This document shows, in pieces, positions 21,468-46,103 of a DNA stretch of 64,000 nt. Every line of letters begins with the position of its first letter. Positions within the stretch are counted from its first letter, which is position 1. The DNA comes from Firmicutes bacterium HGW-Firmicutes-14 (lineage in GTDB: Bacteria > Bacillota > Thermincolia > Thermincolales > UBA2595), in contig PHAB01000011.1 of assembly GCA_002840275.1 (NCBI GenBank), positions 25,886 to 89,885 on the forward strand, given 5' to 3'. The notes under the pieces are model-generated. The model saw only the letters and a list, made by a program, of their open reading frames with translations, was not told where the DNA came from and searched no databases. The position numbers and the translations under genes are program-made.

Positions 21468-23243
21468 ATGGGAAAACTGTTGTTATACTTCAGGAAACCT
21501 TTTTTGCTTCAGGTTATCTTATTATGTATCCCAATGATTCTCTTGGCTTCCGGTCCCGCCTTTGCCGATTCAGCCGGCCCCGCCCTGTCAGGGATATCTC
21601 CTGCTGACGGAGCGGTCATAAATGTGAGTAAGATTACCATATCAGTTACTGCTAAGGACCCGGACAAGGTAAATGCCCAGTCTGTGGTTATGAAGGTTAA
21701 CGGGAATACAGTGTCAACCATAAAACAATATGGCTGGAAAGATGAATATACCGATGATCTCACACTCCTGTCAATTTATTACTCTGCCAGTCTTGGTGAA
21801 GGAACACACAATGTATACATATCAGTGAAGGACAGCTTAGGAAATTTAACAGAGCATGCCTGGTCTTTTACCATCTCCGCACCACCCCAAATATCCTCCC
21901 TGACCCCGGCCGACGGGGCCACTGTTTCCGGGAAAAAGCCGGTTATATCGGCTGTTGTCACCGATAATACGGCCATAGACGAAACCTCTATAAATATGAC
22001 CCTTGACGGGAATACTGTTCCGGCATCCTACGACCCGGTCACCGGGACAGTATCATTTGTCCCCCAGAATGACCTGGCCAATGAAACCACCCATAGTGTT
22101 GTTTTAAATATTCAGGACACTGCCGGGAATCCGGCCCGGGCTGAGTGGAGCTTCAGGGTTGTTACATATGATGAAATGCCGTTTTCAGCAGATGATAATA
22201 CCTGTCAGGCCTGCCACCTTCGCAGTACACATCCGATGAACAACTGCGCCAAGTGCCATGGTATTAATGTCAGCGCTGACAACCCGACATACCCGCTGGA
22301 TGATTGTTATAACTGTCACTTTGGAACTTCTGCTTATCCGTCTGCTTATCATGCAAACGGCCTCCCGTACCTGGCGACACCGGACCACCCGGTACAGGCT
22401 ACCGACAGTTGTGTTACATGCCATACGAAAAACTGGAGTACGGGAATTCCCTATTATCATACTGTTACCAATACCGCGGAGAGGCACCTTACCACTTCTG
22501 AAGGATGTGAGAACTGCCATTCCGCCAGCCTTACCAGGGAACACTACCAGAGGACAGACGATTCCGGCAGCAGCCTGGATTGTTTCACCTGTCACACCAA
22601 TACAGAACCGCGCATACAGGAAGCCATCATTGCCAGGGATTCATCCTGTTCGGCCTGCCATAATCTTGGCGCTGACGGGGGGCACCCGGCCCACAACAAC
22701 GGTCTGGACTCTTATTGCCAGACATGCCATTCAGATTCAATCCTCACAGAATCCCAGTTCCATCAGGACAACGGGTGTCAGGTATGCCACAGCAAAACCG
22801 CACCTGAAATAGCCAAGTATTCTATAAATATAAAGGATACAAGCTGTTTTTCCTGCCACAACCAGGGACATAACGTGAATTTCGTTCAGAGAGTCCCTGA
22901 AGACATTCCCCTTTACCCCGGTTTTAAGTGGACAGTGCCCCAGGATGCCGGGATTTTCGCAGGGGAGCCGTGGGTTGACCCCGGATATGATATTACAGGC
23001 GCCAAAATTGTTATTTCCAACCGGCTTCAATCGGTTGACGGGTCACAGGTCTATTCATGGTATGAAGGAGAGATGGCCGCAAATGGCTGGGCCAAGTCTG
23101 CCGATATGGCCGGGGAGAACGATAATTTTACAATAACCTTCACCAAAGGCATCCGTACAATGACGGTGAATTTATATACCGGAGAGACCCATGACCCTGG
23201 TTCGCCGTTTGTTGGGTACAAGCTGGAAATTTTGTACAGATAA
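21468..23243 (+). CDS. Secreted decahaem c-type cytochrome with two N-terminal Ig-like domains
   Basis: Signal peptide and two repeated Ig-like modules (SGISPADGAVINVSK.../SSLTPADGATVSGKK...). There are ten CxxCH motifs: CQACH, CAKCH, CYNCH, CVTCH, CENCH, CFTCH, CSACH, CQTCH, CQVCH, CFSCH. Confidence 0.85.
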   Translation: MGKLLLYFRKPFLLQVILLCIPMILLASGPAFADSAGPALSGISPADGAVINVSKITISVTAKDPDKVNAQSVVMKVNGNTVSTIKQYGWKDEYTDDLTLLSIYYSASLGEGTHNVYISVKDSLGNLTEHAWSFTISAPPQISSLTPADGATVSGKKPVISAVVTDNTAIDETSINMTLDGNTVPASYDPVTGTVSFVPQNDLANETTHSVVLNIQDTAGNPARAEWSFRVVTYDEMPFSADDNTCQACHLRSTHPMNNCAKCHGINVSADNPTYPLDDCYNCHFGTSAYPSAYHANGLPYLATPDHPVQATDSCVTCHTKNWSTGIPYYHTVTNTAERHLTTSEGCENCHSASLTREHYQRTDDSGSSLDCFTCHTNTEPRIQEAIIARDSSCSACHNLGADGGHPAHNNGLDSYCQTCHSDSILTESQFHQDNGCQVCHSKTAPEIAKYSINIKDTSCFSCHNQGHNVNFVQRVPEDIPLYPGFKWTVPQDAGIFAGEPWVDPGYDITGAKIVISNRLQSVDGSQVYSWYEGEMAANGWAKSADMAGENDNFTITFTKGIRTMTVNLYTGETHDPGSPFVGYKLEILYR

Positions 23244-23368: not shown

Positions 23369-23426
23369 AATATGTTGAGCATTATCCATGTTAGTGAATA
23401 TTACCCATATCAAAGGAGAATTTCAA

Positions 23427-24596
23427 ATGGGTTTTATAGAAGATAAATCGGGAGAAAAAGTGTCGGTTGCGCTGAGTTCGGTTATTGCGTCGGCATTTCT
23501 GACCGTGGGCAAGCTGGTTGTCGGGGTCTTGACAGGCAGTCTTGGCATCCTTTCAGAGGCTGCCCATTCAGCTCTGGATTTTGCTGCCGCATTTATTACA
23601 TATTTTGCTGTTAAGGTGTCTGACAAACCGGCTGATGATAAGCATCACTATGGATATGCAAAGGTTGAGAACCTGTCGGCCCTGATAGAAGCTGTACTGC
23701 TGTTTTTAACCTGTGGCTGGATTATCAGGGAGGCTGTCAGCCGGCTGCTTTTTGCCGAAGTACACATTGAAGTTAATTTCTGGAGTTATGCGGTAATAGT
23801 TATATCCATAATAATAGATTTCTCCAGGTCAAGGGCTTTATCCAAGGCGGCCCAAAAATACAACAGCCAGGCCCTGGAGGCTGATGCCCTGCACTTTTCC
23901 AGTGATATTCTGAGTTCTGCGGTGGTTCTCGCCGGCCTGGTCCTGGCTCGGTTTGGTATCATATATGCAGACCCAGTGGCTGCACTGATAGTTGCTGTAA
24001 TAGTAATCAGGGCCAGCTGGAAACTGGCCAAAAAGACGGTAGAGGTATTGCTGGACAGGGCACCTCACGGTCTGGACCGGGTTATAGCCAACCAGATAAT
24101 GGAGACACCGGGAATAGTCGGTGTGCACAAAGTCCGGCTGCGGCAGTCGGGAGGGCGGATTCACGGAGACCTACATGTGGTGATGGACCGGAACATTTCT
24201 TTTGTCGACGGGCACAAAATAGCAACCACTGTGGAGGAGAAGCTCTCTCAGCACAGTGGTGACATAGTGGTGCATTTTGAACCCGAAGATAACTGGGAGG
24301 AAGTCCAGTCCGAAATGGAGAAAACACGAAAGACGGTTAAAAAAGTTATGGACCGGAACATGACAGATATAATGAATTATCATGACCTGAAAGTTATCCG
24401 GGTTCCCGGGGGGATTTCGGTAAATGTCCATGTGGTGCTTCCTCAGGGTGTCTCTGTATTACAGGCCAGCCAGCGGTGTGATATGCTGGAAAAACTCATT
24501 AAAAAAGAGCTTCGTAACACCGATATTCTTTTTCATATTGAGCCGTGTGCGGGAGCATGCCATGAATGTGAAGGCCGGTGTGATGGCAAAATATAA
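23427..24596 (+). CDS. Cation diffusion facilitator (CDF) family metal efflux transporter with Cys/His-rich tail
   Basis: ...ILSEAAHSALDFAAA...HYGYAKVENL...ALHFSSDILSS... The C-terminal tail is EPCAGACHECEGRCDG. ATG 23427 follows AAGGAG. Confidence 0.9.
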   Translation: MGFIEDKSGEKVSVALSSVIASAFLTVGKLVVGVLTGSLGILSEAAHSALDFAAAFITYFAVKVSDKPADDKHHYGYAKVENLSALIEAVLLFLTCGWIIREAVSRLLFAEVHIEVNFWSYAVIVISIIIDFSRSRALSKAAQKYNSQALEADALHFSSDILSSAVVLAGLVLARFGIIYADPVAALIVAVIVIRASWKLAKKTVEVLLDRAPHGLDRVIANQIMETPGIVGVHKVRLRQSGGRIHGDLHVVMDRNISFVDGHKIATTVEEKLSQHSGDIVVHFEPEDNWEEVQSEMEKTRKTVKKVMDRNMTDIMNYHDLKVIRVPGGISVNVHVVLPQGVSVLQASQRCDMLEKLIKKELRNTDILFHIEPCAGACHECEGRCDGKI

Positions 24597-24604
24597 TAAC
24601 ATGC

Positions 24605-25570
24605 TTATATGACGCGGCTGGTTACCCCTTCCTTGGCCTTAATAAGTTTTGTGACAAATTCATTGACCGGGGTGGGAACCCCCAAATCATTGCCATACCA
24701 TACAATTCGCCCGTTAAGGGCATCAATCTCTGTGCGCCGGCCGCGTTCTAAGTCCTGCAGCATGGACGGACGGTGTTCTGCTGTCAATGGAATCAGCCTG
24801 CCGTAAAAATCAGTAATATATGCTTCCGGAGAATTCCATGGCATCTTGACCCCTTTTGCGCCGGCCACTGCAAATACTTCGGTAATGATCCGGTCCATAA
24901 TATCCCTGGTGTACGGATTATCCGCCAGTTTTCCATAGTTTACTTCCAGCAGGGCGCCCAGGGGGTTCAGGGCGGAGTTGTATACTGTCTTTGCCCATAA
25001 ATATGGATGAACATCTTCGACCCACTCCGTGGGGATTTTTGTTTGTTTAAGGGCAGATACCGCCTCCCTGATTTTATGATCCAAAACGGGATTCGGACCC
25101 GGTACTGCTTTGCCGGCCAGGACTGAATCGGCACATACGGTGACCTGTACACTGCCAGGTCCGGTAATTTCTGCGCCGAAAATAACCCTTGCTGCCGCTG
25201 CCCTGTCCTCTCCAACCTGCCCGGCGAGTATCTCTGCGTTTCCCAGTCCGTTCTGCAGTGAAATGGCAATACCTTCCCGGCTGAGGTATGGGGTGAATTG
25301 AACGGCAGCTTCCAGGGTATCCTGGGATTTTACCGAAAGAAACACCAGGTCAAAAACCGTTCCGGTGAAATCCGACACTTTTTCAGCAGCTATCAATCCA
25401 TGGGCGGTATAATCTCCCCACAGTCCGGAAATTTTTAGCCCGGACCGGCTAATTGCTTCAATGTGCTTTTGGCGGCCCACCAGGGCGACCCGGTGTCCGG
25501 CAAGACGGAGAAAACCACCAAACACGGAACCCAGGGCTCCTGCTCCCATGATAAGTATATTCAATGGCAT
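24605..25570 (-). CDS. panE: 2-dehydropantoate 2-reductase (ApbA/PanE family)
   Basis: MPLNILIMGAGALGSVFGGFL Rossmann N-terminus. 321 aa with the ApbA_C-type C-terminal half. Confidence 0.8.
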   Translation of the reverse strand: MPLNILIMGAGALGSVFGGFLRLAGHRVALVGRQKHIEAISRSGLKISGLWGDYTAHGLIAAEKVSDFTGTVFDLVFLSVKSQDTLEAAVQFTPYLSREGIAISLQNGLGNAEILAGQVGEDRAAAARVIFGAEITGPGSVQVTVCADSVLAGKAVPGPNPVLDHKIREAVSALKQTKIPTEWVEDVHPYLWAKTVYNSALNPLGALLEVNYGKLADNPYTRDIMDRIITEVFAVAGAKGVKMPWNSPEAYITDFYGRLIPLTAEHRPSMLQDLERGRRTEIDALNGRIVWYGNDLGVPTPVNEFVTKLIKAKEGVTSRVI

Positions 25571-25700
25571 AAACCTCCAACAAAATTATCCTGACAGAAA
25601 TTATTTTAACATTATTCACAAAAAAAAGGAAAAAAAATTCTATAAAGGAATTTGTCATAACCTGACGAATATTTTTAGTAAAACTGTTGGAGGAATAATC

Positions 25701-27302
25701 GTGCCTTTTAATAAGAAAAAAAAATCCAAGGGATCTGTAAGCTATACACTTCTGGAAAAAAGGGCAATAGAAGAGGTCCTGGACAAGCTAATGGACAGCA
25801 ACAAAGCACATGGCATCGAAAAAGCGGTTTCTTTTTTACTGGACAAAGACAGCACAATGGTTCTGAAGTCATCTCTTTCCCGGCTGAAAAATATAATCCA
25901 GTCCGACATATCCGGTCAGCATTTAATGAAAGTGACTAACTTGCTGACTGTCATCGCAGAAGTTTATACCGGAGAGGGATTTGTACCGGAAGAGATTAAA
26001 GCGGCAGCCCGGACACCTGGCTTGAGCAGGGGCGCCAAAATGCTTTTACTGTCCTTTTTAGTAAACCTTGGAACCGATGAAGAACAAATCGCTGCCCTTA
26101 TCGATATTGATGAACTGACAGAGATGGCTGAATTTGCTGCTGATAACCTGGCAGGAATGGCCAGAGGCAGCCTGTCTGAAAGACTTTTTTTCCTGCAGGA
26201 ATTCTCGGCCTTCGATCTGGATGACCAAGAAGAAATCATGAAAAAACTGGCTGAGGATAGGTCAGATGCGGCAGCTGAGATGCTGGGAACACTGGCATAT
26301 ACTTATGAACCAAGGATTGTTGAGACTGCTGTCAAACTGCTGGGACAGGATTTAAGAGCAAGAACTTTTGCAATATTACGGGAACTGGCGGAAAACAGGG
26401 AACCGGTTCCCGGGTCCATAGCTAAGCGCGAACTTGGCACAATAAGCGGCAAACCTGTCCGTGATTCAAAACGAAAGTGGAAAAAACCTTTCGGGGAAAT
26501 CTATGATGCTGTTGTGACCTCTTTCGACGGAAAGGGCAGCAGGGCTGTGTGGATGGCATGGAAACTGCCCGGGCGAAAGAACCGGCTGATAGGGGTTAAT
26601 TTTTTAATCAATAGCAGTCTGGGAATAAAAGACTGCTTTGGGACGCCTGATCTTACCCGGAAGGAATTTGACTCAATGGTTGAGGAAATTTCTCAAACTG
26701 CCTCAGTTTTACGGGGTAATCCCGAATACTGTATGTCTCTAATCAGAGGGGCTTTGGACAAATCACTGGCACAGGGATTGCCTGTTCCTGCAGAACTAGC
26801 TTTCTGGCGCAGATGCTTAAAAGATGAGATTTACTGCCGTGGGTATGTCCCCTCTGTCAACAGCCTCCTGCCCAAAACACAAAAAATGCTGCAGGAAAGT
26901 TTCAGCCGCACCGAGATGCTGTTGGATTACCCTGAGTTTACAGGCTGGTATGAAGAAACCCCTGAAGTTTATGATATTGCGGAAACCTTTCTTGACGTTT
27001 CCGGCAGGTTTGGAGATAAACCGATTTTTGAAGAACGGGTGGAACAATTGATTACCGAGGTTATAAACAGGGCAATCAGGCCTGTTATCCCCGAACTCAG
27101 GGAAAGGCTGCTGCTGACAGCTGATTTTATAAAGAAAACAGGCAACAGGAACCTGGCCGGTGATACCATGGTCTGCCTGGCATCCCTTGATTCGGTCCCG
27201 CCTGAACGGCATCCTTTTATAAGAAGAATGGCTTATGAGAGTATTTCTTCAGCGGCATACAACCTGGAAAACGGCATTGATATCAGGACCAAAACAAACT
27301 AG
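25701..27302 (+). CDS. Hypothetical protein (about 533 aa, no family recognised)
   Basis: The long ORF is trimmed to GTG 25701 after GGAGGAATAATC. The upstream part of the track ORF overlaps panE on the opposite strand. Confidence 0.6.
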   Translation: MPFNKKKKSKGSVSYTLLEKRAIEEVLDKLMDSNKAHGIEKAVSFLLDKDSTMVLKSSLSRLKNIIQSDISGQHLMKVTNLLTVIAEVYTGEGFVPEEIKAAARTPGLSRGAKMLLLSFLVNLGTDEEQIAALIDIDELTEMAEFAADNLAGMARGSLSERLFFLQEFSAFDLDDQEEIMKKLAEDRSDAAAEMLGTLAYTYEPRIVETAVKLLGQDLRARTFAILRELAENREPVPGSIAKRELGTISGKPVRDSKRKWKKPFGEIYDAVVTSFDGKGSRAVWMAWKLPGRKNRLIGVNFLINSSLGIKDCFGTPDLTRKEFDSMVEEISQTASVLRGNPEYCMSLIRGALDKSLAQGLPVPAELAFWRRCLKDEIYCRGYVPSVNSLLPKTQKMLQESFSRTEMLLDYPEFTGWYEETPEVYDIAETFLDVSGRFGDKPIFEERVEQLITEVINRAIRPVIPELRERLLLTADFIKKTGNRNLAGDTMVCLASLDSVPPERHPFIRRMAYESISSAAYNLENGIDIRTKTN

Positions 27303-27775: not shown

Positions 27776-27792
27776 TCAAGGGGGAAATTGAA

Positions 27793-29976
27793 ATGAAGGG
27801 CAGTTTGTTTCCAGAAACAGAGGCATCCGGGGCACGTCATCAGTATAAAGCCCAAACCCTCAGGTCCACCCTGGAGATTACAGGGATTGACTGACTGGAT
27901 TGTGCAGGGAAGCTTGCCGAAAAAATCAGGCGACTTCCCGGAGTGGCTGAGGTTCAGCTGAATTTTGGCGCCGGTTTGGTGAAGATTAACCACAGCGGAC
28001 CCCTGGAGGAGATTATCAGATTTATTTCTTCCAACGGTTATGAGGCAAAAACAACAGGTCCGGGTAAAAACGTAACCCAGTCCACCTCGAACAACCTGAG
28101 ACTGAAACAGGCCCTGACAGTTTTGTCAGGAGTCTTTGCCGGTGCGGGGATGGTGACGGAATGGGCCGGAAACGATGAACGGGCCGCGGTCTTATTATTT
28201 ATTGCAGCAATGGTTACCGGGGGCTTCTATGTGTACAAATCAGCGGTTAGTTCCCTGAAAAGTCTCGTCCTGGACATGAATGTCCTGATGACTGTTTCAT
28301 CAATTGGGGCTGTATTTATTGGAGAATGGTCGGAAGCGGCAACAGTTGTGTTTCTGTTCAGTGTGGGGAATATGCTTCAGGCATATACCATTGACCGGAC
28401 CCGGGATTCAATTAAAAAAATGATCCGGCTGGCGCCCCGTGAGGCCAGGAGACTGCTGCCCGGCGGAACAGAGGAAACGGTGCCGGTGGATGAGATTAAT
28501 ACTGGGGACCACATTCTGGTCAGGCCCGGGGAAAACATTGCTGTAGACGGTATTGTGATATCAGGCATTTCCTGGGCAGACCAGGCTTCCATTACCGGTG
28601 AGTCCAAACCGGTGGAGAAGCGGGAGGGAGACAGGGTTTTTGCAGGGTCAATTAACAATGAGGGCAGCCTCGAGGTTAAATGCAGCCATCCCGCTTCAGA
28701 CAGCACCCTGGCGAAGATGATTGAGATGGTTGAGGAAGCCCAGGCAAAAAAAGCCCCATCCCAGCAGTTTGTGGATGTTTTTGCCCGGTATTATACTCCT
28801 GCCGTTATTTTCGGCGCCGCAGCGGTAGTCCTTATCCCTGTGGCTGTCTTCGACAGGGCATTTGCGGACTGGTTTTACAAAGCCCTGGTGCTTCTGGTCA
28901 TCTCTTGTCCGTGTGCACTGGTTATATCCACTCCGGTATCGATAGTATCGGCGATAGGAAACGCTGCCAGGAACGGGGTCCTGGTGAAGGGCGGGGTCTA
29001 CCTGGAAGCTCTTGGTAAAGTAAAAAATATTGCCTTTGATAAGACAGGAACAGTCACATCCGGCAGGATGTCAGTTACTGATATTTTCCCTGCGGATGGA
29101 ATAACGGAAGAGGATCTGCTGGAGCTGGCCGGGGCAGTGGAAAGGTTTTCTGAGCACCCGGTAGCGAAGGCGGTTATGGCTGAAACCGATAATAGAAATC
29201 TTGCCTCTCCTTATGAAGGCACATTTCGTTCATATCCTGGCCGGGGCGCTTCCCTGGAGACGGGAGACGGTGTGATATATGCCGGGAACAAGCGATTTAT
29301 GAAGGAGACCGGCATTGATACAGGTCATACTGCCGGAAGGGAAGAAATACTGGAATCTGAAGGGAAATCGGCAGTATATATCGCCAGGGACTACCGGCTG
29401 CTGGGGGTACTGGCTGTTGCAGATACTCCGAGGTCCGGGGCGGGAGAAGCCCTTAATCAGCTGAGGAACCAGGGTATTGACAGGCTGGTTATGCTCAGCG
29501 GGGACAACGAAAAAATAGTAGGAAACATTGCAGGGAGACTGGGAATTAAACATTATAAGTCTAACTTGCTGCCGGGGGATAAAGTCAGAGAAGTTGAGCA
29601 AATGGCTGAGGACGGAGTGACTGTAATGGTGGGTGACGGGGTAAACGATGCCCCGGCATTGGCCGTTGCAACCGTCGGAATAGCAATGGGAGCGGCAGGA
29701 ACCGATACTGCCCTGGAAACGGCCGATATTGCCCTGATGAATGATGAACTTAAGAATATCCCGGCAGTGGTAATGCTGGGAAAACGAACCAGGGCTGTCA
29801 TCAGGCAGAATATTGCCTTAGCTGTTCTTTTAAAGCTTCTGTTTCTTGTCCTGACCTTTGCCGGGATATCAAACCTCTGGATGGCTGTTTTTGCTGACAC
29901 CGGCGCTTCTGTGATGGTAACCCTGAACGGGATGCGGCTGGCCCGCTTCAGGTTTCCGGACCGGCCTGTAATTTAG
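27793..29976 (+). CDS. cadA: Cd/Zn/Pb-type P1B heavy-metal ATPase; N-terminal HMA domain contains an in-frame TGA at 27892-27894 (candidate Sec, or a disrupted gene)
   Basis: RBS AAGGGGGA precedes ATG 27793. The product reads ...TLEITGID-TGA-LDCAGKLAEKIRRLPGVAEVQLNFGAG... in the same frame as the track ORF at 27943. Motifs present: CPC, DKTGT, GDGVNDAPAL. Confidence 0.85.
27907..27939 (+). promoter_or_regulatory. Stem-loop 12 nt downstream of the in-frame TGA (SECIS-like candidate)
   Basis: GGGAAG-C-TTGCC pairs with GGCGA-CTTCCC: 11 pairs including one G-U, with one bulged C. The loop is the 10-nt GAAAAAATCA. Confidence 0.35.
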
Positions 29977-35921: not shown

Positions 35922-36193
35922 CTCCCGTATTTAGTAGAATGCAAAAAACAGATAAAGACCCAGATGCTGAAAGACAGTTCATACTTTTAATTCAACACTT
36001 ATCTGAAAATTCCTGCCATCATATTTACTACGAAAGTAATAATTTTACTTTGCCTTATTACTATTCTATATTCCCTAGTATATCAGGCAGGAATGTTCCC
36101 TTTGCACAGTGAATAATATATTGGTTTAATATTTTTATAAATTTTTTGGGTGATCCTTTAGTTTTTAGCGGAAAGGACGATAGGAACGGTCTA

Positions 36194-37408
36194 ATGAAAA
36201 TTATCTCTGTCAGTGATTTAAACGGGTATATCAAACAAAAAATTGATTCCGACATGTTTCTTAGAAACATATGGGTCAGGGGAGAGATTTCAAATTTTAA
36301 ACACCATTCCTCAGGGCATATGTATTTTACCCTAAAGGACAAGTCAGGTGCAATCAGGTGTGTAATGTTCAGGAGCAAAAACGGCAGCCTGCCCTTTCCG
36401 CCGAGGGATGGAATGGCTGTAATTGCCAGGGGTTATGTCACCGTTTATGAAAGAGACGGTCAGTACCAGCTTTATGTTGAGGAAATGCATCAACAGGGTA
36501 TCGGCGCCCTTTATGTTGCTTTTTTACAGTTGAAAGAGAAGCTGGAGAAGGAAGGTTTGTTTGACAGGGACCGGAAGAAGCCACTGCCGGCTTTTCCCGG
36601 GAAGATTGGGGTTGTTACTTCTCCCACGGGTGCGGCGGTCAGGGATATTATAAACGTAATTACCCGCAGGTTCCCCCAGGTTCAGATTGTTCTTATCCCG
36701 GTGGCTGTGCAGGGGGATGAGGCTCCCCGCCAGATAGCGGAAGGCATAAAGACAGCAAATTCCCTTGGAGGACTGGATGTGCTTATCGTGGGCAGGGGAG
36801 GGGGTTCTATTGAGGAACTCTGGGCCTTTAATACTGAAATAGTTGCCAGGGGCATAGCCGGAAGTCTTATCCCGGTAGTTTCGGCAGTAGGCCACGAAAC
36901 CGATTTCACCATTGCTGATTTTGTTGCTGATATGAGGGCCCCGACACCGTCTGCGGCTGCAGAAATGGTTGTGCCGGACTGTAACGAACTGATGAAAACC
37001 CTGGTCAGCCTGCAGCAGAGAATGGCTGCCGGAATGAACAACAGCCTGACATCTCTCCACTTAAGGTTGGCCAGGGCTGTTGAAAGTCCGGTGATGACCC
37101 GGCCCATGGACGGGATATACAGAAAAATGCAGGACCTGGATTACCTGGTCAGAAGACTGCATCAGACTGCTGTAATATACTTAAACAACAGGCAAAACAG
37201 CTTATCCCTGCAAATATCCCGGCTGGATGACCTCAGTCCCCTGGCTACACTGAAACGTGGTTACAGTTTATGTCTCGATGATGGCGGAAAGGTGATCAGG
37301 AATGTATCCCGGGTAAGTCCGGGGGATAAAGTTGAAATAGTAATACATGACGGTGTGATCGATTGTACTGTGGAAAGAGTAAAGGAGGGCGAGTATGGCA
37401 AAAAATAA
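36194..37408 (+). CDS. xseA: Exodeoxyribonuclease VII large subunit
   Basis: MKIISVSDLNGYIKQKIDSD..L.NIWVRGEISNFK.HSSGHMYFTLKD... Confidence 0.93.
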   Translation: MKIISVSDLNGYIKQKIDSDMFLRNIWVRGEISNFKHHSSGHMYFTLKDKSGAIRCVMFRSKNGSLPFPPRDGMAVIARGYVTVYERDGQYQLYVEEMHQQGIGALYVAFLQLKEKLEKEGLFDRDRKKPLPAFPGKIGVVTSPTGAAVRDIINVITRRFPQVQIVLIPVAVQGDEAPRQIAEGIKTANSLGGLDVLIVGRGGGSIEELWAFNTEIVARGIAGSLIPVVSAVGHETDFTIADFVADMRAPTPSAAAEMVVPDCNELMKTLVSLQQRMAAGMNNSLTSLHLRLARAVESPVMTRPMDGIYRKMQDLDYLVRRLHQTAVIYLNNRQNSLSLQISRLDDLSPLATLKRGYSLCLDDGGKVIRNVSRVSPGDKVEIVIHDGVIDCTVERVKEGEYGKK

Positions 37409-37652
37409 GGAAATGCAGGAACTAACTTTTGAGCAGGCACTAAACGAATTGGAATCCATCGTCAAACTGATGGAGGATGGGAACCTGGAACTTGATGATA
37501 CACTGAAAATGTTTGAAAAGGGTATTGTTTTGTCAAGGATATGTTCAGACAAGCTCAAAAAGGCGGAAAAAAAGATAAGTGTACTCATGGCTAATGAAAA
37601 CGGAGAAATGGTTTTACAGCCTGCAACCATCCCGGAGGAACAGGAAGTGTGA
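37395..37652 (+). CDS. xseB: Exodeoxyribonuclease VII small subunit
   Basis: ...LTFEQALNELESIVKLMEDGNLELDDTLKMFEKG. It overlaps the xseA end. Confidence 0.9.
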   Translation: MAKNKEMQELTFEQALNELESIVKLMEDGNLELDDTLKMFEKGIVLSRICSDKLKKAEKKISVLMANENGEMVLQPATIPEEQEV

Positions 37653-37660
37653 GGAACAGT

Positions 37661-38560
37661 ATGAATAAAGAAGACCTTAAAAGGGAAATAAATGATAAAG
37701 TCAGGTCAATAGACGAGGCTTTGGAAAAGTACCTTCCCGGGGGTGAAGAAATACCGTCTGAGATACACCGGTCGATGCGTTACAGCATTTTTGCCGGGGG
37801 AAAACGTCTCAGGCCGGTTCTTTGCCTTACAGCTGCCGAAGCTGTGGGAGGGGATTCATCCTCATTGCTTCCGGCTGCCTGTGCCCTTGAATTAATCCAT
37901 ACCTATTCTTTGATTCATGATGACCTGCCGGCTATGGATAATGATGACTTCCGGCGCGGAAAGCCGACTAATCACAAGGTTTACGGTGAAGCCATGGCCA
38001 TACTGACAGGCGATGCCTTGCTGACTATGGCATTTGGCCTGATTGCGGAATGCAGCACATCAGGGGATATAACACCGGAAACCGTAATCCGGGTCATCCG
38101 CGAAGTCTCCGCAGCTGCAGGTTCTCAGGGGATGATAGGCGGACAGGTTGTAGATATTCTGTCAGAAAACAAGTCTGTGGATCAGGATAGATTGAAATAT
38201 ATCCATGACCATAAGACAGGGGCGCTTTTTAAGGCATCCATCCGTACAGGAGCCTTATTGGGGCGTGGTTCCGAAGAACAGGTTGAGAGCCTTTCCATTT
38301 TCGCTGAGAACCTGGGACTTGCTTTTCAGATAACAGACGATATCCTGGATATAGAAGGGGAATTCCAGAAGATTGGCAAAACCCTGGGCAGTGATGAACG
38401 AAAACACAAATGTACCTATCCGGCTGTCTTCGGGTTGCAGGAATCCAAAGCCCTGGCAGGAAAAGCTGTTGAGCGGGCCTTATTGTCTCTGAGGGACTTT
38501 GACGGCAGAGCGGATGTTTTAAGATATATTGCTAAGTACTTACTGGATAGGGACAGATGA
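37661..38560 (+). CDS. ispA: Polyprenyl (farnesyl/geranyl) diphosphate synthase
   Basis: First and second Asp-rich motifs (LIHDDLPAMDNDDFRRG; FQITDDILD). Confidence 0.9.
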   Translation: MNKEDLKREINDKVRSIDEALEKYLPGGEEIPSEIHRSMRYSIFAGGKRLRPVLCLTAAEAVGGDSSSLLPAACALELIHTYSLIHDDLPAMDNDDFRRGKPTNHKVYGEAMAILTGDALLTMAFGLIAECSTSGDITPETVIRVIREVSAAAGSQGMIGGQVVDILSENKSVDQDRLKYIHDHKTGALFKASIRTGALLGRGSEEQVESLSIFAENLGLAFQITDDILDIEGEFQKIGKTLGSDERKHKCTYPAVFGLQESKALAGKAVERALLSLRDFDGRADVLRYIAKYLLDRDR

Positions 38561-38593
38561 AAATTCAGGCCACATAAAATTCAGGCCACACTA

Positions 38594-39055
38594 ATGTCTG
38601 GAGGACTTTATTTGAATAAAGCCCTTGATCAATTTCTGAATAATTCTATCCTGACAGCAGCAGTTTTATCATGGGTTTTGGCACAGCTGATTAAATTCTT
38701 CATTAGCATGATAAGGGATAGAAAAGTTGATTTTATCCTTTTGACCAAAAGTGGCGGAATGCCCAGCGGTCATGCTGCCCTTGTAACGGCCTCTGCCTTG
38801 GGAATAGGCAGGAAAATCGGATTTGATTCAGGTGAGTTTGCCCTTGCCTCGGTGATTGCTTTTATCGTTATGTATGATGCGGCTGGGGTCAGACAGGCCG
38901 TGGGAATCCAGGCTCAAATCTTAAATGAACTCATTCATGACATCTATCACGGTACAGGCATAAAACCCGTGAAAATAAAAGAAATACTCGGACATACCCC
39001 CATCGAGGTACTGGCGGGTTCTTTTTTAGGCATAGTAATAGCGCTGCTGTTTTAG
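38594..39055 (+). CDS. Divergent PAP2 / DUF212 family membrane protein
   Basis: ...SGGMPSGHAALVTA... and ...YDAAGVR...G with several TM segments. Confidence 0.8.
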   Translation: MSGGLYLNKALDQFLNNSILTAAVLSWVLAQLIKFFISMIRDRKVDFILLTKSGGMPSGHAALVTASALGIGRKIGFDSGEFALASVIAFIVMYDAAGVRQAVGIQAQILNELIHDIYHGTGIKPVKIKEILGHTPIEVLAGSFLGIVIALLF

Positions 39056-39066
39056 AAAAGGAGTAA

Positions 39067-39095
39067 TTGAACATTAATATATATTATGATATAAT
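39067..39095 (+). promoter_or_regulatory. Candidate sigma-A promoter upstream of OLE RNA
   Basis: TTGAAC (39067-39072), 17-nt spacer, TATAAT (39090-39095). Confidence 0.4.
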
Positions 39096-39147
39096 TACTT
39101 TCACAATTTGATAAAGTAATTTTAATCAAATGTGTATCAGTATCCTG

Positions 39148-39758
39148 GTAGGTGGCGCAGTATCCTAGTCAGGACCGGCACTTTGAGGGCGGGCCTAAAA
39201 ATCCGTCAAAGGGCATATCGATGAAGTTCCTGGTTCCGGCTGCTGACGCCCAGTTGGGGGTCGGTTCTGGGAGTAAGGGGGAAGGGCGATCTACAATGGC
39301 ATGTAGGCGTGGACCCAGCCCCCGTGGAGGCCCGGAAGCTGTAGTACAAGATAGTGGGAATTACCTTATACTACGATTCGGGATAAACCTGCCTAAGATG
39401 TTTTATTTTATATAATTCGTCAGAAGCAGTGTAGCCTGCCTTGAGTGGTGCTGGTGGATTATGGGTTACCGGGGTACCGGATGCGGGCCCGCGTCCGGCA
39501 ACTCCGCTATTTGAAACCACCACTGCAAAAGAGGCTAGAAGTATCCCGGTACTGTTGAGGAAAACTCCTAGGCTGTTTAGGTTAAACCTAAGACATGATG
39601 GGGATTAAAGTGTGGACTAAGTGGTAATCCAGCCCCGTATTCGGTGACGGTACGGATTCATCATAAAGGGAAACCGCCGGCACGGTAACGTGGCGGTGAT
39701 GATTGGGAAAACCAGCTGGACCTAAGCTACAACATTTACTCATCATGTTGCCACCTAC
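39148..39758 (+). ncRNA. ole: OLE (ornate, large, extremophilic) RNA
   Basis: A tract of about 611 nt with no credible ORF lies exactly at the ispA-side / oapA / dxs position typical of OLE. It is closed by a long-range helix, GTAGGTGGC (39148-39156) with GCCACCTAC (39750-39758). There are many internal GC-rich helices (e.g. CCGGATGCGGGCCCGCGTCCGG, CCGCCGGCACGGTAACGTGGCGG). Confidence 0.8.
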
Positions 39759-39785
39759 TGTTACATTTACATGAGGTGAAACTAT

Positions 39786-40379
39786 TTGGGAAACAATAAG
39801 CCTGGCTCTCTTAAATTTGCAGTTTTTACAGGAGCCGGCGCGTTTTTAGTGGCTGTTTTTTTTAGTATATTTTCTGAAATATTGTTGCCAAAACTGCAAA
39901 TACTTATACTATCTTTTTTTGTTTTACTCCTGGTTATTTTTATTGGGATAATATTTGACATGATTGGGGTTGCCGCAGCTGTTGCAGATGAACGGGCGTT
40001 TCATGCAAAAGCCTCTAAGAAGCTTAAGGGAGCAAGTCACTCCCTGTTTCTGATAAAACATGCTGACAAGGTGGCAACTTTTTGTAATGATGTGGTGGGG
40101 GATATATGTGGAACTGTCAGCGGCGCCTTTGGAGTGGCCATAGGTCTCCAGGTGGTTACCGGTAAGCCTGACTGGAATGAAAGTATCCTTACCATGATAA
40201 TGACCGGACTCGTTGCTTCATTGACCGTGGGCGGGAAAGCTGCGGGGAAGAAGACCGCTATGGATGATTCTGAACAAATTATTTATGCCGTTGGCAGAAT
40301 AATCGCCTGGTTTGAATCAGTGACAGGGATACGGATTATTGGCGGCGGCCAGCGTAAGGGCAAGGATAGAAGAAGGTGA
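39786..40379 (+). CDS. oapA: OLE-associated membrane protein OapA
   Basis: 197-aa protein with four hydrophobic segments immediately downstream of the OLE-like RNA and upstream of dxs. TTG start. Confidence 0.75.
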
Positions 40380-42322
40380 ACAAAACAGTGGATACTCCAC
40401 TATTGGACAAGGTAAACGGCCCTTCAGACCTGAGGGGTTTTTCTATAAGCCACCTGCACAGACTGGCGGAAGAAATCAGGGCGTTTCTGATAGAATCGGT
40501 TTCCGGGACAGGAGGACATCTTGCCCCCAATTTGGGGGTTGTAGAACTGACTATTGCCCTGCACAGCGTTTTTAGCTGTCCCCATGACAAACTAATATGG
40601 GATGTGGGTCACCAGTCATATGTGCATAAGATCCTGACAGGAAGAAAGGAAGAGTTTTCAACCCTCAGACAATATGCCGGGTTGAGCGGTTTTCCCAAAA
40701 GGGCGGAGAGTAAATGTGACCCTTTTGATACAGGACACAGCAGTACATCCATATCAGCTGCCCTCGGAATGGCGCTGGCCCGGGACCTAAACGGAGAGGA
40801 TTATAATATAATCGCAGTAATAGGCGATGGGGCAATGACAGGCGGAATGGCTTTTGAAGCCCTCAACCACGCAGGTCATATGGGCAAAAACATGATTGTG
40901 GTGCTGAATGATAATGAGATGTCAATCTCTGAAAACGTAGGGGCCCTTGCCGGCTATTTAAGCCGGATGAGGACTGACCCGAAGTATTATAAACACAAGG
41001 AAGAAATGGAACTGATGTTAAAGAAGATTCCTTCCATCGGTCCGACGGTCGTCAAGGCTATTGAAAGGATAAAGGACAGTTTTAAGTACCTGGTGGTACC
41101 GGGAATGATTTTTGAGGAACTGGGGTTTACCTATCTGGGACCTATCAACGGGCATGACATAGCCCTTATGAAGACTGTTCTGGAGCGGGCAAAGAAGAGC
41201 CATGGCCCTATTATTGTGCACGTGGTTACACGGAAAGGCAAGGGTTATAAACCGGCTGAGGATAACCCCGACAAATTCCATGGTATCGGACCTTTCGACA
41301 TAGATTCCGGAAATGGGAAGGGAACTAAAAAAGCATCTTATACAGATGTTTTCGGCAGTACCCTCTGTGAAATAGCTGAACAAAATGAAAAGGTTGTTGC
41401 TATTTCAGCTGCCATGCCATCAGGGACGGGACTCACCAAGTTCCAGGACCGGTTTCCAAAAAGGTTTTTTGACGTGGGAATAGCCGAGCAGCATGCAGTA
41501 ACAATGGCTGCCGGGTTATCTGTAAATGGATATATTCCTGTTGTGGCTATTTATTCCACTTTTCTGCAGAGGGCTTATGACCAGATTCTTCATGATGTCT
41601 CCTTACAGGGCCTGCACGTCATTTTTGCCATTGACCGGGCCGGGTTGGTTGGTGAAGACGGGGAAACACACCAGGGAGTGTTTGATGTTTCTTATTTGAG
41701 GCATATTCCCGGCATGACGGTGATGGCCCCAAAGGATGAAAACGAATTGCGCCTGATGCTTAAGGCGGCAGTTGAAGCGAAAGGCCCCGTGGCTGTCAGA
41801 TATCCCCGGGGAGCCGGTATGGGAGTACCCTTAACAGATATTGATTGTCCTGATAACAAATTACCGAGGGGTGCAGATCTGTTGAGGGAGGGTTCCGATA
41901 TTACCATAGCTGCCATAGGGCCTCTTGTTTATACAGCTCTTGAGGCCGCAGAATCACTTCACGAAGAGGGGATTTGTGCTGCTGTAATAAACGCCAGGTA
42001 TATTAAACCACTTGATGAAGAATGTCTTATAGAAAACATTTTGAAGACCGGAAGCCTGCTGACCGTTGAAGAGAATGTCCTGCAAGGTGGGTTTGGAAGC
42101 GCGGTTCTTGAGATGCTGAACCGAAAAGGAATAAATATACAGGTGAAATGTATGGGAATTGCCGATGAGTTTGTCAGTCACGGCACCCCTGACATTTTAA
42201 GGCAGAAATACGGTTTGACAAGTCAGGGTATAATTTCACATGTAAGGGAAATGTTATCAGGGGAGGACGAGCCGAAAAAGCTCAGAAAAACTGCGCGGAT
42301 TAAGGTTTTGACTAAGCCTTAG
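40376..42322 (+). CDS. dxs: 1-deoxy-D-xylulose-5-phosphate synthase
   Basis: ...[18 protein letters not shown]....[18 protein letters not shown]... and [15 protein letters not shown]. Confidence 0.97.
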
Positions 42323-42380
42323 GAAATAAGTCCTGGGAAATAAGTCTGGGAAACGGTCAATCTTGCGGAAGGTGTCATAT

Positions 42381-43193
42381 ATGGCTAATAAAAAGCGTTT
42401 AGATGTGATGTTAGTAGAAAAAGGCCTTTTCCCTTCGCGGGAAAAGGCCAAATCTGCGATTATGGCAGGTTTGATTAATATTGACGGCAGGCTTGTTGAT
42501 AAGGCAGGTACAGAAATCAGTGTTGATTCACAGATTGAAGTTACCGGTCCGGCCAATCCGTATGTAAGCCGGGGCGGTTTGAAACTGAAAAAGGCGCTGG
42601 ATGAATTCGGAATCAGCCTGGCGGGGAAAGTTGTGGCAGATATCGGAGCATCAACGGGCGGCTTCACTGACTGTGTCCTTCAGCATGGAGCTGTAAAGGT
42701 ATACGCTATAGATGTCGGGTATGGCCAGTTGGACTGGAAACTGAGACAGGACCCGCGGGTTGTTAATTTGGAACGGACCAATATCAGGTATTTTGACCCC
42801 GGACTGCTTAATGAAACCCCAGACCTGGTTACCGTTGATGTTGCTTTTATTTCCCTGGAAAAAGTGCTGCCCAAAATCAGTGAGATACTTGAGCCGGGAG
42901 GACTACTGGTAACCTTGATAAAGCCCCAGTTCGAAGCGGGGCGTCAACAGGTTGGCAAAAAGGGGGTTGTCCGGGATCCGGACATACATATAGAGGTCAT
43001 TGACAGGATAATAGCTTTTGCCGCAGGCTGTGGCATTGATACTGTACATCTTACATATTCCCCCATCAAGGGACCGGAAGGTAATATCGAATACCTGGCC
43101 CTGATGAGAAGAAGTGAAGGGATTACACAAAAGCCTGTTCCCGGGGAAAACCTCATCCGCTCCGTGGTTTCCGCTGCCTTTTGTGAATTGTGA
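42381..43193 (+). CDS. tlyA: TlyA family rRNA (cytidine-2'-O)-methyltransferase
   Basis: MANKKRLDVMLVEKGLF.SREKAK..IMAG S4 domain, followed by the FtsJ-like DIGASTGGFTD motif. Confidence 0.9.
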   Translation: MANKKRLDVMLVEKGLFPSREKAKSAIMAGLINIDGRLVDKAGTEISVDSQIEVTGPANPYVSRGGLKLKKALDEFGISLAGKVVADIGASTGGFTDCVLQHGAVKVYAIDVGYGQLDWKLRQDPRVVNLERTNIRYFDPGLLNETPDLVTVDVAFISLEKVLPKISEILEPGGLLVTLIKPQFEAGRQQVGKKGVVRDPDIHIEVIDRIIAFAAGCGIDTVHLTYSPIKGPEGNIEYLALMRRSEGITQKPVPGENLIRSVVSAAFCEL

Positions 43194-45164: not shown

Positions 45165-46103
45165 ATGATGCTGACAAAAAAATGGATTACAGCCGTACTG
45201 TTAGGCTTGATGGTGACAGTGCTGTTTACCGGTTGCCGGGACTCCGCTCCGGAAATGGGGGAACGAAAGAAGGTAACTGAAGCACAGGTTAAGGCTTTTC
45301 AGGCTCAAAAGGAGCAAAAAATGGTTGATATATATGTGCCTATTAAGGAACAGTATGAGACCAGCGGGCACTCTGAATCCCTTAAAACTCTGAGGGAATA
45401 CCAGGGTACTATAGAGCCAAGATGTTATTCTTGTATGTCAGCGGAATATTTTCTCGCCCCCCCGGAACAGAAACCTGAACCTGCAGCAATTAGCCATTCC
45501 ATAACATGTGCAGTATGCCATGAAATGACACTGTCTGAATTTAAACTCAGACTGGAACCACTGGAAACCTGTACTACCTGCCATAACAACGGGGGTGACA
45601 TTGTCGCCGGACAACAGGTCCATCACCCGCAGAAAGAGATGTTTCTGGGATATGGCGCTATCGGGGTCCCCAACACACCTGATACAAAGTACAGTTCCGG
45701 ACTGACCTGTATTGAATGTCACATGCCTAATGAAGCCCACACCTTTAAGGGCAAGACTCCTGCCGATGCTCTTAAGGAGCATACGGAAAGCATTTGTGTC
45801 ATGTGCCATGCGGACAGATCTGAAGAACAGTTTGCCAAGGAAGTTGCCAAAATGCAGTCACAAATTGAAAAAAGCTGTGATTCAATCGAGAAAAGCCTAA
45901 AGCTGTCAGAGCAAAAGATGAGGACTTTTGGACAACAGGGAAGAGATGTTACGAAAGCCTGGGAAGTTTACAATGTTGTTTATACCAATCTGTCTTTTGT
46001 GGTTTCTGACGGGAGCAAGGGCATACATAATTTTGGGTATGCCACCAAGATTACCGAGTATACGGAAAAACGGAACCGCGAGCTCGAGGAACTGCTCAAA
46101 TAA
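45165..46103 (+). CDS. Multihaem c-type cytochrome lipoprotein (4 CxxCH plus an NrfA-like CxxCM)
   Basis: Lipobox LFTGC. Haem motifs CAVCH, CTTCH, CIECH, CVMCH. CYSCMSAEY (C87-M91) resembles the NrfA CWSCKSPD active-site motif. Confidence 0.8.
   Translation: MMLTKKWITAVLLGLMVTVLFTGCRDSAPEMGERKKVTEAQVKAFQAQKEQKMVDIYVPIKEQYETSGHSESLKTLREYQGTIEPRCYSCMSAEYFLAPPEQKPEPAAISHSITCAVCHEMTLSEFKLRLEPLETCTTCHNNGGDIVAGQQVHHPQKEMFLGYGAIGVPNTPDTKYSSGLTCIECHMPNEAHTFKGKTPADALKEHTESICVMCHADRSEEQFAKEVAKMQSQIEKSCDSIEKSLKLSEQKMRTFGQQGRDVTKAWEVYNVVYTNLSFVVSDGSKGIHNFGYATKITEYTEKRNRELEELLK

Follow-up and report, generated by a model that had tools for sequence, protein, structure and literature searches.

In a 64,000-nucleotide stretch of contig PHAB01000011.1 from Firmicutes bacterium HGW-Firmicutes-14 (hereafter the window), we identified a gene for a heavy-metal P-type ATPase whose reading frame carries a TGA codon at the position of the first metal-binding cysteine of its N-terminal HMA domain. 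Our analysis indicates that this gene is very probably a single cistron encoding a selenocysteine (Sec)-containing efflux ATPase of the Zn/Cd/Pb type, co-transcribed with the gene of a CadC-like repressor, and that Sec would be inserted at the UGA. Public annotation removes about 50 residues, and with them the whole metal-binding site, from every Sec-form orthologue that we found, and reading the UGA as Sec gives back a complete cadC-cadA-type operon. The protein would be among the few predicted cases in which Sec would bind a toxic metal, either transported or sensed, and would not be a redox catalyst.

The mention of heavy-metal ATPases containing Sec in the original prediction, which had been made from the sequence of the window alone, is correct. 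The family was listed as known by Zhang & Gladyshev in 2007 (PMC1976440), it is also present in the Global Ocean Sampling (GOS) selenoproteome (PMC2398784), and Peng et al. 2016 (PMC5029168) found 32 sequences of it, distributed over 25 organisms; a 2026 review describes it as TIGR01525 with the representative ABB15669.1, and refers to these transporters as "predicted", with roles that "require further investigation" (PMC13188914). It is not mentioned in Zhang et al. 2006 (PMC1794560). Like the published members, the window gene encodes a P1B ATPase that passes the TIGR01525 cut-off and has a U-x-x-C motif with UGA for the first cysteine of the HMA domain; likewise, it has TGA-containing homologues and a Cys-form homologue with which it makes up a Sec/Cys pair, and it occurs in anaerobic Bacillota. 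Unlike them, all the members found here are truncated in public annotation. Based on these sequence-level criteria, we consider the window gene to be a mis-annotated new member of this predicted selenoprotein family. Since the family has been predicted computationally since about 2007, the main gain is the correction of a truncated gene call in public records, and no new category is established.

Position and conservation of the in-frame TGA

The frame opens at ATG 27793-27795, and the Shine-Dalgarno sequence AAGGGGGA, read from the window sequence, ends 7 nucleotides (nt) upstream of it, which confirms the strong ribosome-binding site that had been claimed for this start. Thirty-three sense codons ending in ITGID precede the in-frame TGA, which is followed by CTG GAT TGT GCA GGG AAG, with the frame running on as LDCAGKLAEKIRRLPGVAEVQLNFGAGL; the in-frame translation reads MKGSLFPETEASGARHQYKAQTLRSTLEITGID up to the TGA and LDCAGKLAEKIRRLPGVAEVQLNFGAGLVKINHSG directly after it, and it ends at the stop codon 29974-29976. 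The mechanical list of open reading frames (ORFs) splits the gene into two pieces, 27793-27894 (33 amino acids, aa) and 27943-29976 (677 aa, with a GTG start); this start of the ATPase in the list had been remarked on in the original prediction. The 677-aa call shows 100% identity to a protein of HGW-Firmicutes-14 on a 246-kb contig. The coordinates of all these elements are collected in Table 1.

Domain searches were run on the read-through product with Cys put in place of the stop codon. The resulting 727-aa protein contains three Pfam domains, HMA (residues 26-84), E1-E2_ATPase, and Hydrolase/HAD; the HMA match (PF00403, with 31.4 bits where the cut-off is 24.8) extends across the TGA, and the PF00122 match scores 181.6 bits. 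Among the NCBIfam models, the protein passes both TIGR01525, the heavy-metal P-type ATPases (607 bits against a cut-off of 346.25), and TIGR01512, the cadmium family (517.6 bits against 313.5). It carries the sequences ISCPCAL (CPC, transmembrane helix TM6), QNIALAVLLK (N(x)7K, TM7), and ADTGASVMVTLN (DxG(x)7N, TM8), as well as FDKTGT and GDGVNDAP. In the Arguello classification, these motifs mark the Zn/Cd/Pb (P1B-2) subgroup. In the Protein Data Bank (PDB) alignments with human ATP7B, a second Cu(+) ATPase, and Bacillus subtilis CopA, the TGA column corresponds to the first Cys of GMTCxxC, in agreement with the position that the original prediction had assigned to it; Listeria monocytogenes CadA (2aj0) and Escherichia coli ZntA (1mwy) are found in the same table of PDB matches, which gives them without printed alignments. 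The Asp directly before the TGA is invariant among the orthologues, and an Asp preceding the first ligand presumably resembles the D-C-x-x-C site of ZntA.

Special attention was given to the conservation of the TGA. The homologues nearest to the window protein in the protein collection (P0003-P0012, with 61-67% identity) have no called HMA domain, and their called sequences begin at assorted positions just past the CxxC. In the DNA of each of them, the frame extends 5' through a TGA at one and the same column, within G[ILV]D-TGA-[LP]DCA[GE]K. Besides the window, 13 loci carry this TGA: two Thermincola metagenome-assembled genomes (MAGs; L001 and L002), the complete genome of Phosphitispora sp. 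TUW77 (L019, CP156677.1), and ten metagenomic loci (L020-L026 and L029-L031). With the window included, they make up 14 loci and about 10 distinct sequences, nine or so of them further to that of the window, with 60-67% amino acid identity to the window protein, and the stop codon at the Sec column is TGA in all 14, never TAA or TAG. One orthologue that is 64% identical to the window protein (L028/P0002) has TGT at this column, in GLDCLDCAEK; it represents the Cys form, and the TGA of the window and the TGT of L028 constitute a Sec/Cys pair. Homologues at about 50% identity carry ordinary HMA domains.

The piece of the gene that lies upstream of the TGA is preserved as well. Each orthologue has an ATG 24-34 codons 5' of the TGA, with neither a stop codon nor a frameshift in between, and in the 10 other orthologues examined a Shine-Dalgarno sequence, GGAGG or GGGGG, lies 6-9 nt 5' of this ATG. 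The encoded peptide keeps the strand pattern h-x-h-x-G-h-D, even as its Gly and Asp codons undergo synonymous changes. The combination of the Shine-Dalgarno sequence, the ATG, the 24-34 stop-free codons, and the conserved pattern indicates that the upstream piece is translated. In public records, the Sec-form ATPases, the one in CP156677.1 among them, are called 40-90 residues short. It was also observed that five of the related loci contain orphan public ORFs of 31-32 aa (Table 1), which are really the N-terminal pieces of Sec-form ATPases.

Directly 5' of the ATPase gene lies the gene of a regulator that scores 101.8 bits with NF033788 (cut-off of 55) and matches SmtB (1r1t, E 9e-27) and CadC (1u2w, E 9e-20) in the PDB. 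Its cysteines are the N-terminal C8 and C12, together with C59-V-C61. From its sequence, we classify it as a winged-helix ArsR protein of the CadC/SmtB type with cysteines of the alpha-3N type, for which a Cys pair near the N terminus and a CxC in helix 3 are characteristic, and a predicted response to metal. Only 17 nt separate the end of the regulator gene from the start of the ATPase gene, so both probably belong to one operon, and the locus looks like an operon of the cadC-cadA type. It resembles the known CadC-CadA/ZntA systems (Staphylococcus aureus pI258 CadCA, E. coli ZntA, and L. monocytogenes CadA) in the ArsR/SmtB repressor with CadC-like cysteines directly 5' of the pump, in the CPC, N(x)7K, and DxG(x)7N motifs of the ATPase, and in the single N-terminal HMA domain; it differs from them in having a UGA, predicted to be read as Sec, as the codon of its first thiolate ligand. 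Its scores also lie under the cut-offs of the ZntA equivalogs (NF008262, 608 bits against 1005; NF033775, 546 against 1240), which makes it a member of the family and not an orthologue of the characterized enzymes.

Among the related loci, the gene order TsaD, CDF, ArsR, ATPase, LysM, and NfnAB-like pair is kept. In the window, a 402-aa cation efflux transporter of the CDF family (23388-24596, + strand) is located two to three genes 5' of cadC-cadA; L020, L021, and L022 share this neighbor, suggesting that a cluster for metal homeostasis has been conserved.

Table 1. Coordinates of the cadC-cadA-type locus, of its candidate recoding elements, and of orphan ORFs in related loci. Positions refer to the window unless a locus is named.
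Feature	Position	Strand	Basis
cadC-like ArsR/SmtB metalloregulator, 119 aa	27416-27775	+	HTH_5 (Pfam) 62 bits; NF033788; SmtB/CadC PDB matches
Shine-Dalgarno sequence AAGGGGGA	27778-27785	+	GGAGG/GGGGG equivalent in all 10 other orthologues examined
Full coding sequence, predicted selenoprotein with UGA as Sec34	27793-29976	+	727-aa P1B-2 (CadA/ZntA-type) ATPase
N-terminal HMA metal-binding domain, site G-I-D-U-L-D-C	27868-28044	+	PF00403, residues 26-84
UGA, candidate Sec codon in place of the first CxxC Cys	27892-27894	+	TGA in 13 other loci; TGT in L028
Suppressed synonymous substitution, 25 codons 3' of the UGA, both hairpins covered	27895-27969	+	10 full-length orthologues
Hairpin 1, candidate bacterial Sec insertion sequence	27907-27939	+	Single-sequence folds; RNAalifold consensus of 11 sequences
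Hairpin 2, up to 7 base pairs, GGU loop	27944-27960	+	RNAalifold consensus; fixed codons
Orphan short ORFs in related loci	L020 2887-2982; L021 2854-2952; L022 2797-2892; L030 1318-1416; L031 1387-1482		N-terminal pieces of Sec-form ATPases

RNA hairpins and codon constraint 3' of the TGA

The region around the TGA was aligned in 11 sequences, from 6 nt 5' to 81 nt 3' of the codon (alignment A2), and the RNAalifold consensus of this alignment consists of two hairpins. The first corresponds to the stem-loop of 11 pairs with one bulge that the original prediction had placed 12 nt after the TGA, and it folds as it had been described: the order is GGGAAG, a bulged C, UUGCC, a 10-nt loop, GGCGA, and CUUCCC, in which GGGAAG/CUUCCC form a lower stem of 6 base pairs (bp) and the segments beyond the bulge an upper stem of 5 bp. 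Hairpin 1 folds in all 11 sequences, with energies from -11.8 to -23.4 kcal/mol (-17.0 kcal/mol in the window, for the UGA plus 51 nt), and 95.5% of its alignment cells are paired. The changes seen in it comprise one G-C to A-U in the lower stem (L022), two G-C to U-A in the upper part, and several G-U wobbles; two pairs show compensatory changes. A lower stem that takes in the UGA, which appeared in the single-sequence folds of L020 and L031, was rejected as it is not conserved.

According to the model of the bacterial Sec insertion sequence (bSECIS; Zhang & Gladyshev 2005, summarized in PMC13188914), the apical loop lies 16-37 nt from the UGA and measures 3-9 nt, the upper stem has 4-16 bp, the minimum free energy is at most -7.5 kcal/mol, and the loop has a G in its first or second position, usually as G[G/U]. 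As in the consensus, the stem-loop of the window is located inside the coding region, directly 3' of the UGA. The apical loop of hairpin 1 starts at 27919, 24 nt after 27894, which agrees with the expectation of the original prediction that its position would be compatible with a bacterial element; its upper stem and its energy are also within the model. The loop of the window, GAAAAAAUCA, has a G at position 1, followed by A where the model has G[G/U], and the loops of L021 and L030 read GCAAA.

Hairpin 2 lies 5 nt past hairpin 1, at a distance of 56 nt from the UGA. It reads UGGCUGA-GGU-UCAGCUG in the window and UAGCUGA-GGU-UCAGCUA in several orthologues, and its 5 inner pairs do not vary in any Sec-form orthologue, synonymous sites included. 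The GGU triloop fits the loop rules of the bSECIS model, whereas the 56-nt spacing falls outside it. Of 10 sequences, 9-10 share the codons GCT GAG GTT CAG that build this hairpin; in the Cys-form L028, which is a single case, both the sequence of hairpin 2 and the encoded residues are changed (GCC GGG GTT AAA). Hairpin 2 may contribute to the recoding signal as an accessory element, and it is the sole feature of the locus that is not described in the cited selenoproteome literature.

The synonymous sites gave stronger evidence than the covariation. Among 10 full-length orthologues, the mean pairwise synonymous codon difference is 0.295 in the 25 codons after the TGA versus 0.574 elsewhere in the gene (z = -3.89). 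Only 3 of 411 blocks of equal size are equally low, and all of them start at codons 21-24 in a numbering where the TGA is codon 22; similarly, the ten lowest 12-codon windows all lie within codons 24-52. The hairpin that the original prediction expected to be maintained in orthologues with TGA is present in all of them, inside this zone of lowest synonymous variation. The stems of both hairpins are built by fixed codons, GGG AAG ... CTT CCC in the first and GCT GAG GTT CAG in the second, which are mostly not the preferred ones in the genome (GGG 0.25, CTT 0.20, CCC 0.28, GCT 0.25, and GAG 0.29).

Weighing the insertion of Sec against its alternatives

The proposal of the original prediction that the TGA is a candidate Sec codon is supported by the conservation of the TGA, by the Sec/Cys pair, and by the suppression of synonymous changes. 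It is important to note that a number of observations weigh against it. The fold of the window itself (72 nt) has a z-score of -1.42, and 21 of 200 shuffled sequences fold equally well; consequently, the window sequence alone does not prove a structure beyond chance, and hairpin 1 is considered to be more than chance because of the comparison with the orthologues and not because of this fold. The covariation is thin: most pairs are invariant, only two are doubly changed, and the covariation values of the alignment are attained by 14-25 of 500 column shuffles. Because most pairs are invariant, the support from covariation is weak, and reliance was placed on the synonymous-site suppression instead. 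The loop of hairpin 1, with 10 nt and the start GA, exceeds the 3-9 nt of the bSECIS model, and in contrast to the consensus the apical parts vary among the orthologues, whose loops comprise 3-5 nt on weak A-U ministems or 15 nt; several of them have AAAAA as the apical loop and gain a G there only if the weak A-U ministem opens, which gives a loop that begins with GU. A search of Rfam with 27850-28000 gave no matches at E <= 10. In addition, the incorporation of selenium is so far a prediction for every member of the family, which is still called "predicted" in the 2026 review (PMC13188914).

Another point on this side is the machinery for Sec. A search for selA, selB, selD, and tRNA-Sec that covered the 64-kb window, roughly 18 kb of additional flank (some 8-10 kb on either side along the same contig), and the related loci identified none of them, and ARAGORN found no tRNAs of any kind in the window or in 14 related loci. 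A C-terminal query of Moorella SelB, taken from PDB alignments, recovered from the protein collection short fragments only, none of them assignable to the source lineage, and a PDB search with E. coli SelA gave no Firmicute sequence usable as a query. Peng et al. 2016 (PMC5029168) credit Thermincola potens JR with 10 selenoproteins, and in the NCBI taxonomy strain JR is the same species as the label on L001 and L002. As for the codon itself, TGA is the ordinary stop of 10 of the 56 genes in the window, which indicates that it has not undergone a genome-wide reassignment; a scan of the window for other ORFs with TGA read-through revealed none that was convincing, and its matches were mostly antisense ORFs. 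A megablast of the plasmid collection with the locus returned no matches.

If the UGA is read as Sec, translation would start at ATG 27793, and at UGA 27892 the ribosome would be met by SelB-GTP-Sec-tRNA(Sec), recruited through the stem-loop at 27907-27939, while the hairpin at 27944-27960 may help the recoding. Sec would be inserted as residue 34, and the metal site of the HMA domain would become Asp-Sec-x-x-Cys in place of Asp-Cys-x-x-Cys. The selenolate would offer thiophilic divalent metals a softer ligand of lower pKa in a regulatory, metal-receiving domain, and the transport step would take place through the membrane site formed by CPC, N(x)7K, and DxG(x)7N. A variant of this mechanism assigns a larger role to the second hairpin, which would be needed for the insertion of Sec or would even be the actual site of SelB binding, with hairpin 1 as a spacer that brings it near the decoding site. 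We regard such a two-hairpin element as rather doubtful; if it were true, the synthesis of the pump would be tied to the selenium supply through an unusual architecture of the insertion sequence.

Apart from Sec, the explanation that survives best is a recoding independent of it, in which a near-cognate tRNA (Trp or Cys) would read through the UGA, or termination would be followed by re-initiation, and the hairpins would act as stimulators without SelB. Read-through signals, too, typically have a conserved RNA structure 3' of the stop codon, hairpin 1 matches the bSECIS model loosely, and the Sec machinery of the source MAG is so far a presumption. However, the position of the UGA is precisely that of a Cys ligand, one retained as Cys in L028, which is the signature of a Sec/Cys pair and not of read-through; moreover, the stop is invariably TGA, the ATPase family is recognized as a predicted selenoprotein, and a Thermincola species with the TGA form is reported to use Sec. 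In light of these features, we find recoding of this kind improbable.

A nonsense mutation with pseudogenization would have left a dead HMA domain and a truncated ATPase that lacks the metal-binding domain and starts at GTG 27943 or at some other downstream codon. Public gene callers annotate exactly such truncated ATPases, of 677 aa in the case of P0001 and 636-688 aa in P0003-P0012, and P1B ATPases without an N-terminal metal-binding domain can still transport. Nevertheless, about 10 distinct orthologues from different genera retain the TGA, with the Shine-Dalgarno sequence, the ATG, and the upstream codons intact and the HMA residues conserved on either side of it; furthermore, no downstream start codon is conserved among the orthologues, and the gene callers picked different ones in different genomes. 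The equivalent of GTG 27943 is GTA in 6 of 10 orthologues, and a GGAG overlaps this GTG, which leaves it without a usable Shine-Dalgarno spacing. As judged from the sequence, GTG 27943 is not a credible start, the truncated product that the original prediction had offered as an alternative found no support, and we consider this explanation highly unlikely. A sequencing or assembly error at 27892-27894, where the true codon would be TGC or TGT, might be suspected in a window that comes from a MAG, yet it is next to impossible given the identical TGA in independent NCBI, JGI, ENA, and Logan assemblies and in the complete isolate genome CP156677.1, a conservation that effectively excludes both the error and the nonsense mutation.

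Other features in and around the window

About 1 kb 5' of the first nucleotide of the window, the contig carries a further gene that was considered as a selenoprotein candidate. It encodes 101 aa with a CMD domain (AhpD-like; L033 8677-8982, - strand), and its family has known CxxU forms. It was rejected because it ends in TAA and lacks a CxxC/U motif.

Upstream of the cadC-like gene, a 613-aa ORF (25461-27302, + strand) has no Pfam or NCBIfam match. Its 5' end overlaps a convergent panE-like gene (24605-25570), so its true start is probably later. Comparable genes without Pfam domains (about 534 aa) are located just 5' of cadC in Phosphitispora (L019 737-2341) and in a metagenomic locus (L029 1-702).

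The only Rfam family at the gathering threshold is a full-length OLE RNA (39136-39770, + strand, 502 bits). Its neighborhood (36146-43193) is the classic one, with xseA, an ispA-like polyprenyl synthetase, DUF212, OLE, a 197-aa ORF, dxs, and an FtsJ/S4 gene (tlyA-like); the 197-aa ORF (39786-40379), which occupies the position of oapA next to OLE, has no Pfam match. Further downstream, an 884-aa fusion protein (54103-56757, + strand) combines DHH/DHHA1 and CBS domains with a tRNA nucleotidyltransferase, and its best NCBIfam match is the A-adding tRNA nucleotidyltransferase, with 788 bits, under the cut-off of 1440. Finally, the window encodes a 591-aa multihaem c-type cytochrome (21468-23243, + strand), which has N-terminal bacterial Ig-like domains and cytochrome c7/c3 and MtrC-like matches, and a cytochrome c552-like protein (45165-46103, + strand); both are consistent with a Thermincola-like metal-reducing lifestyle.

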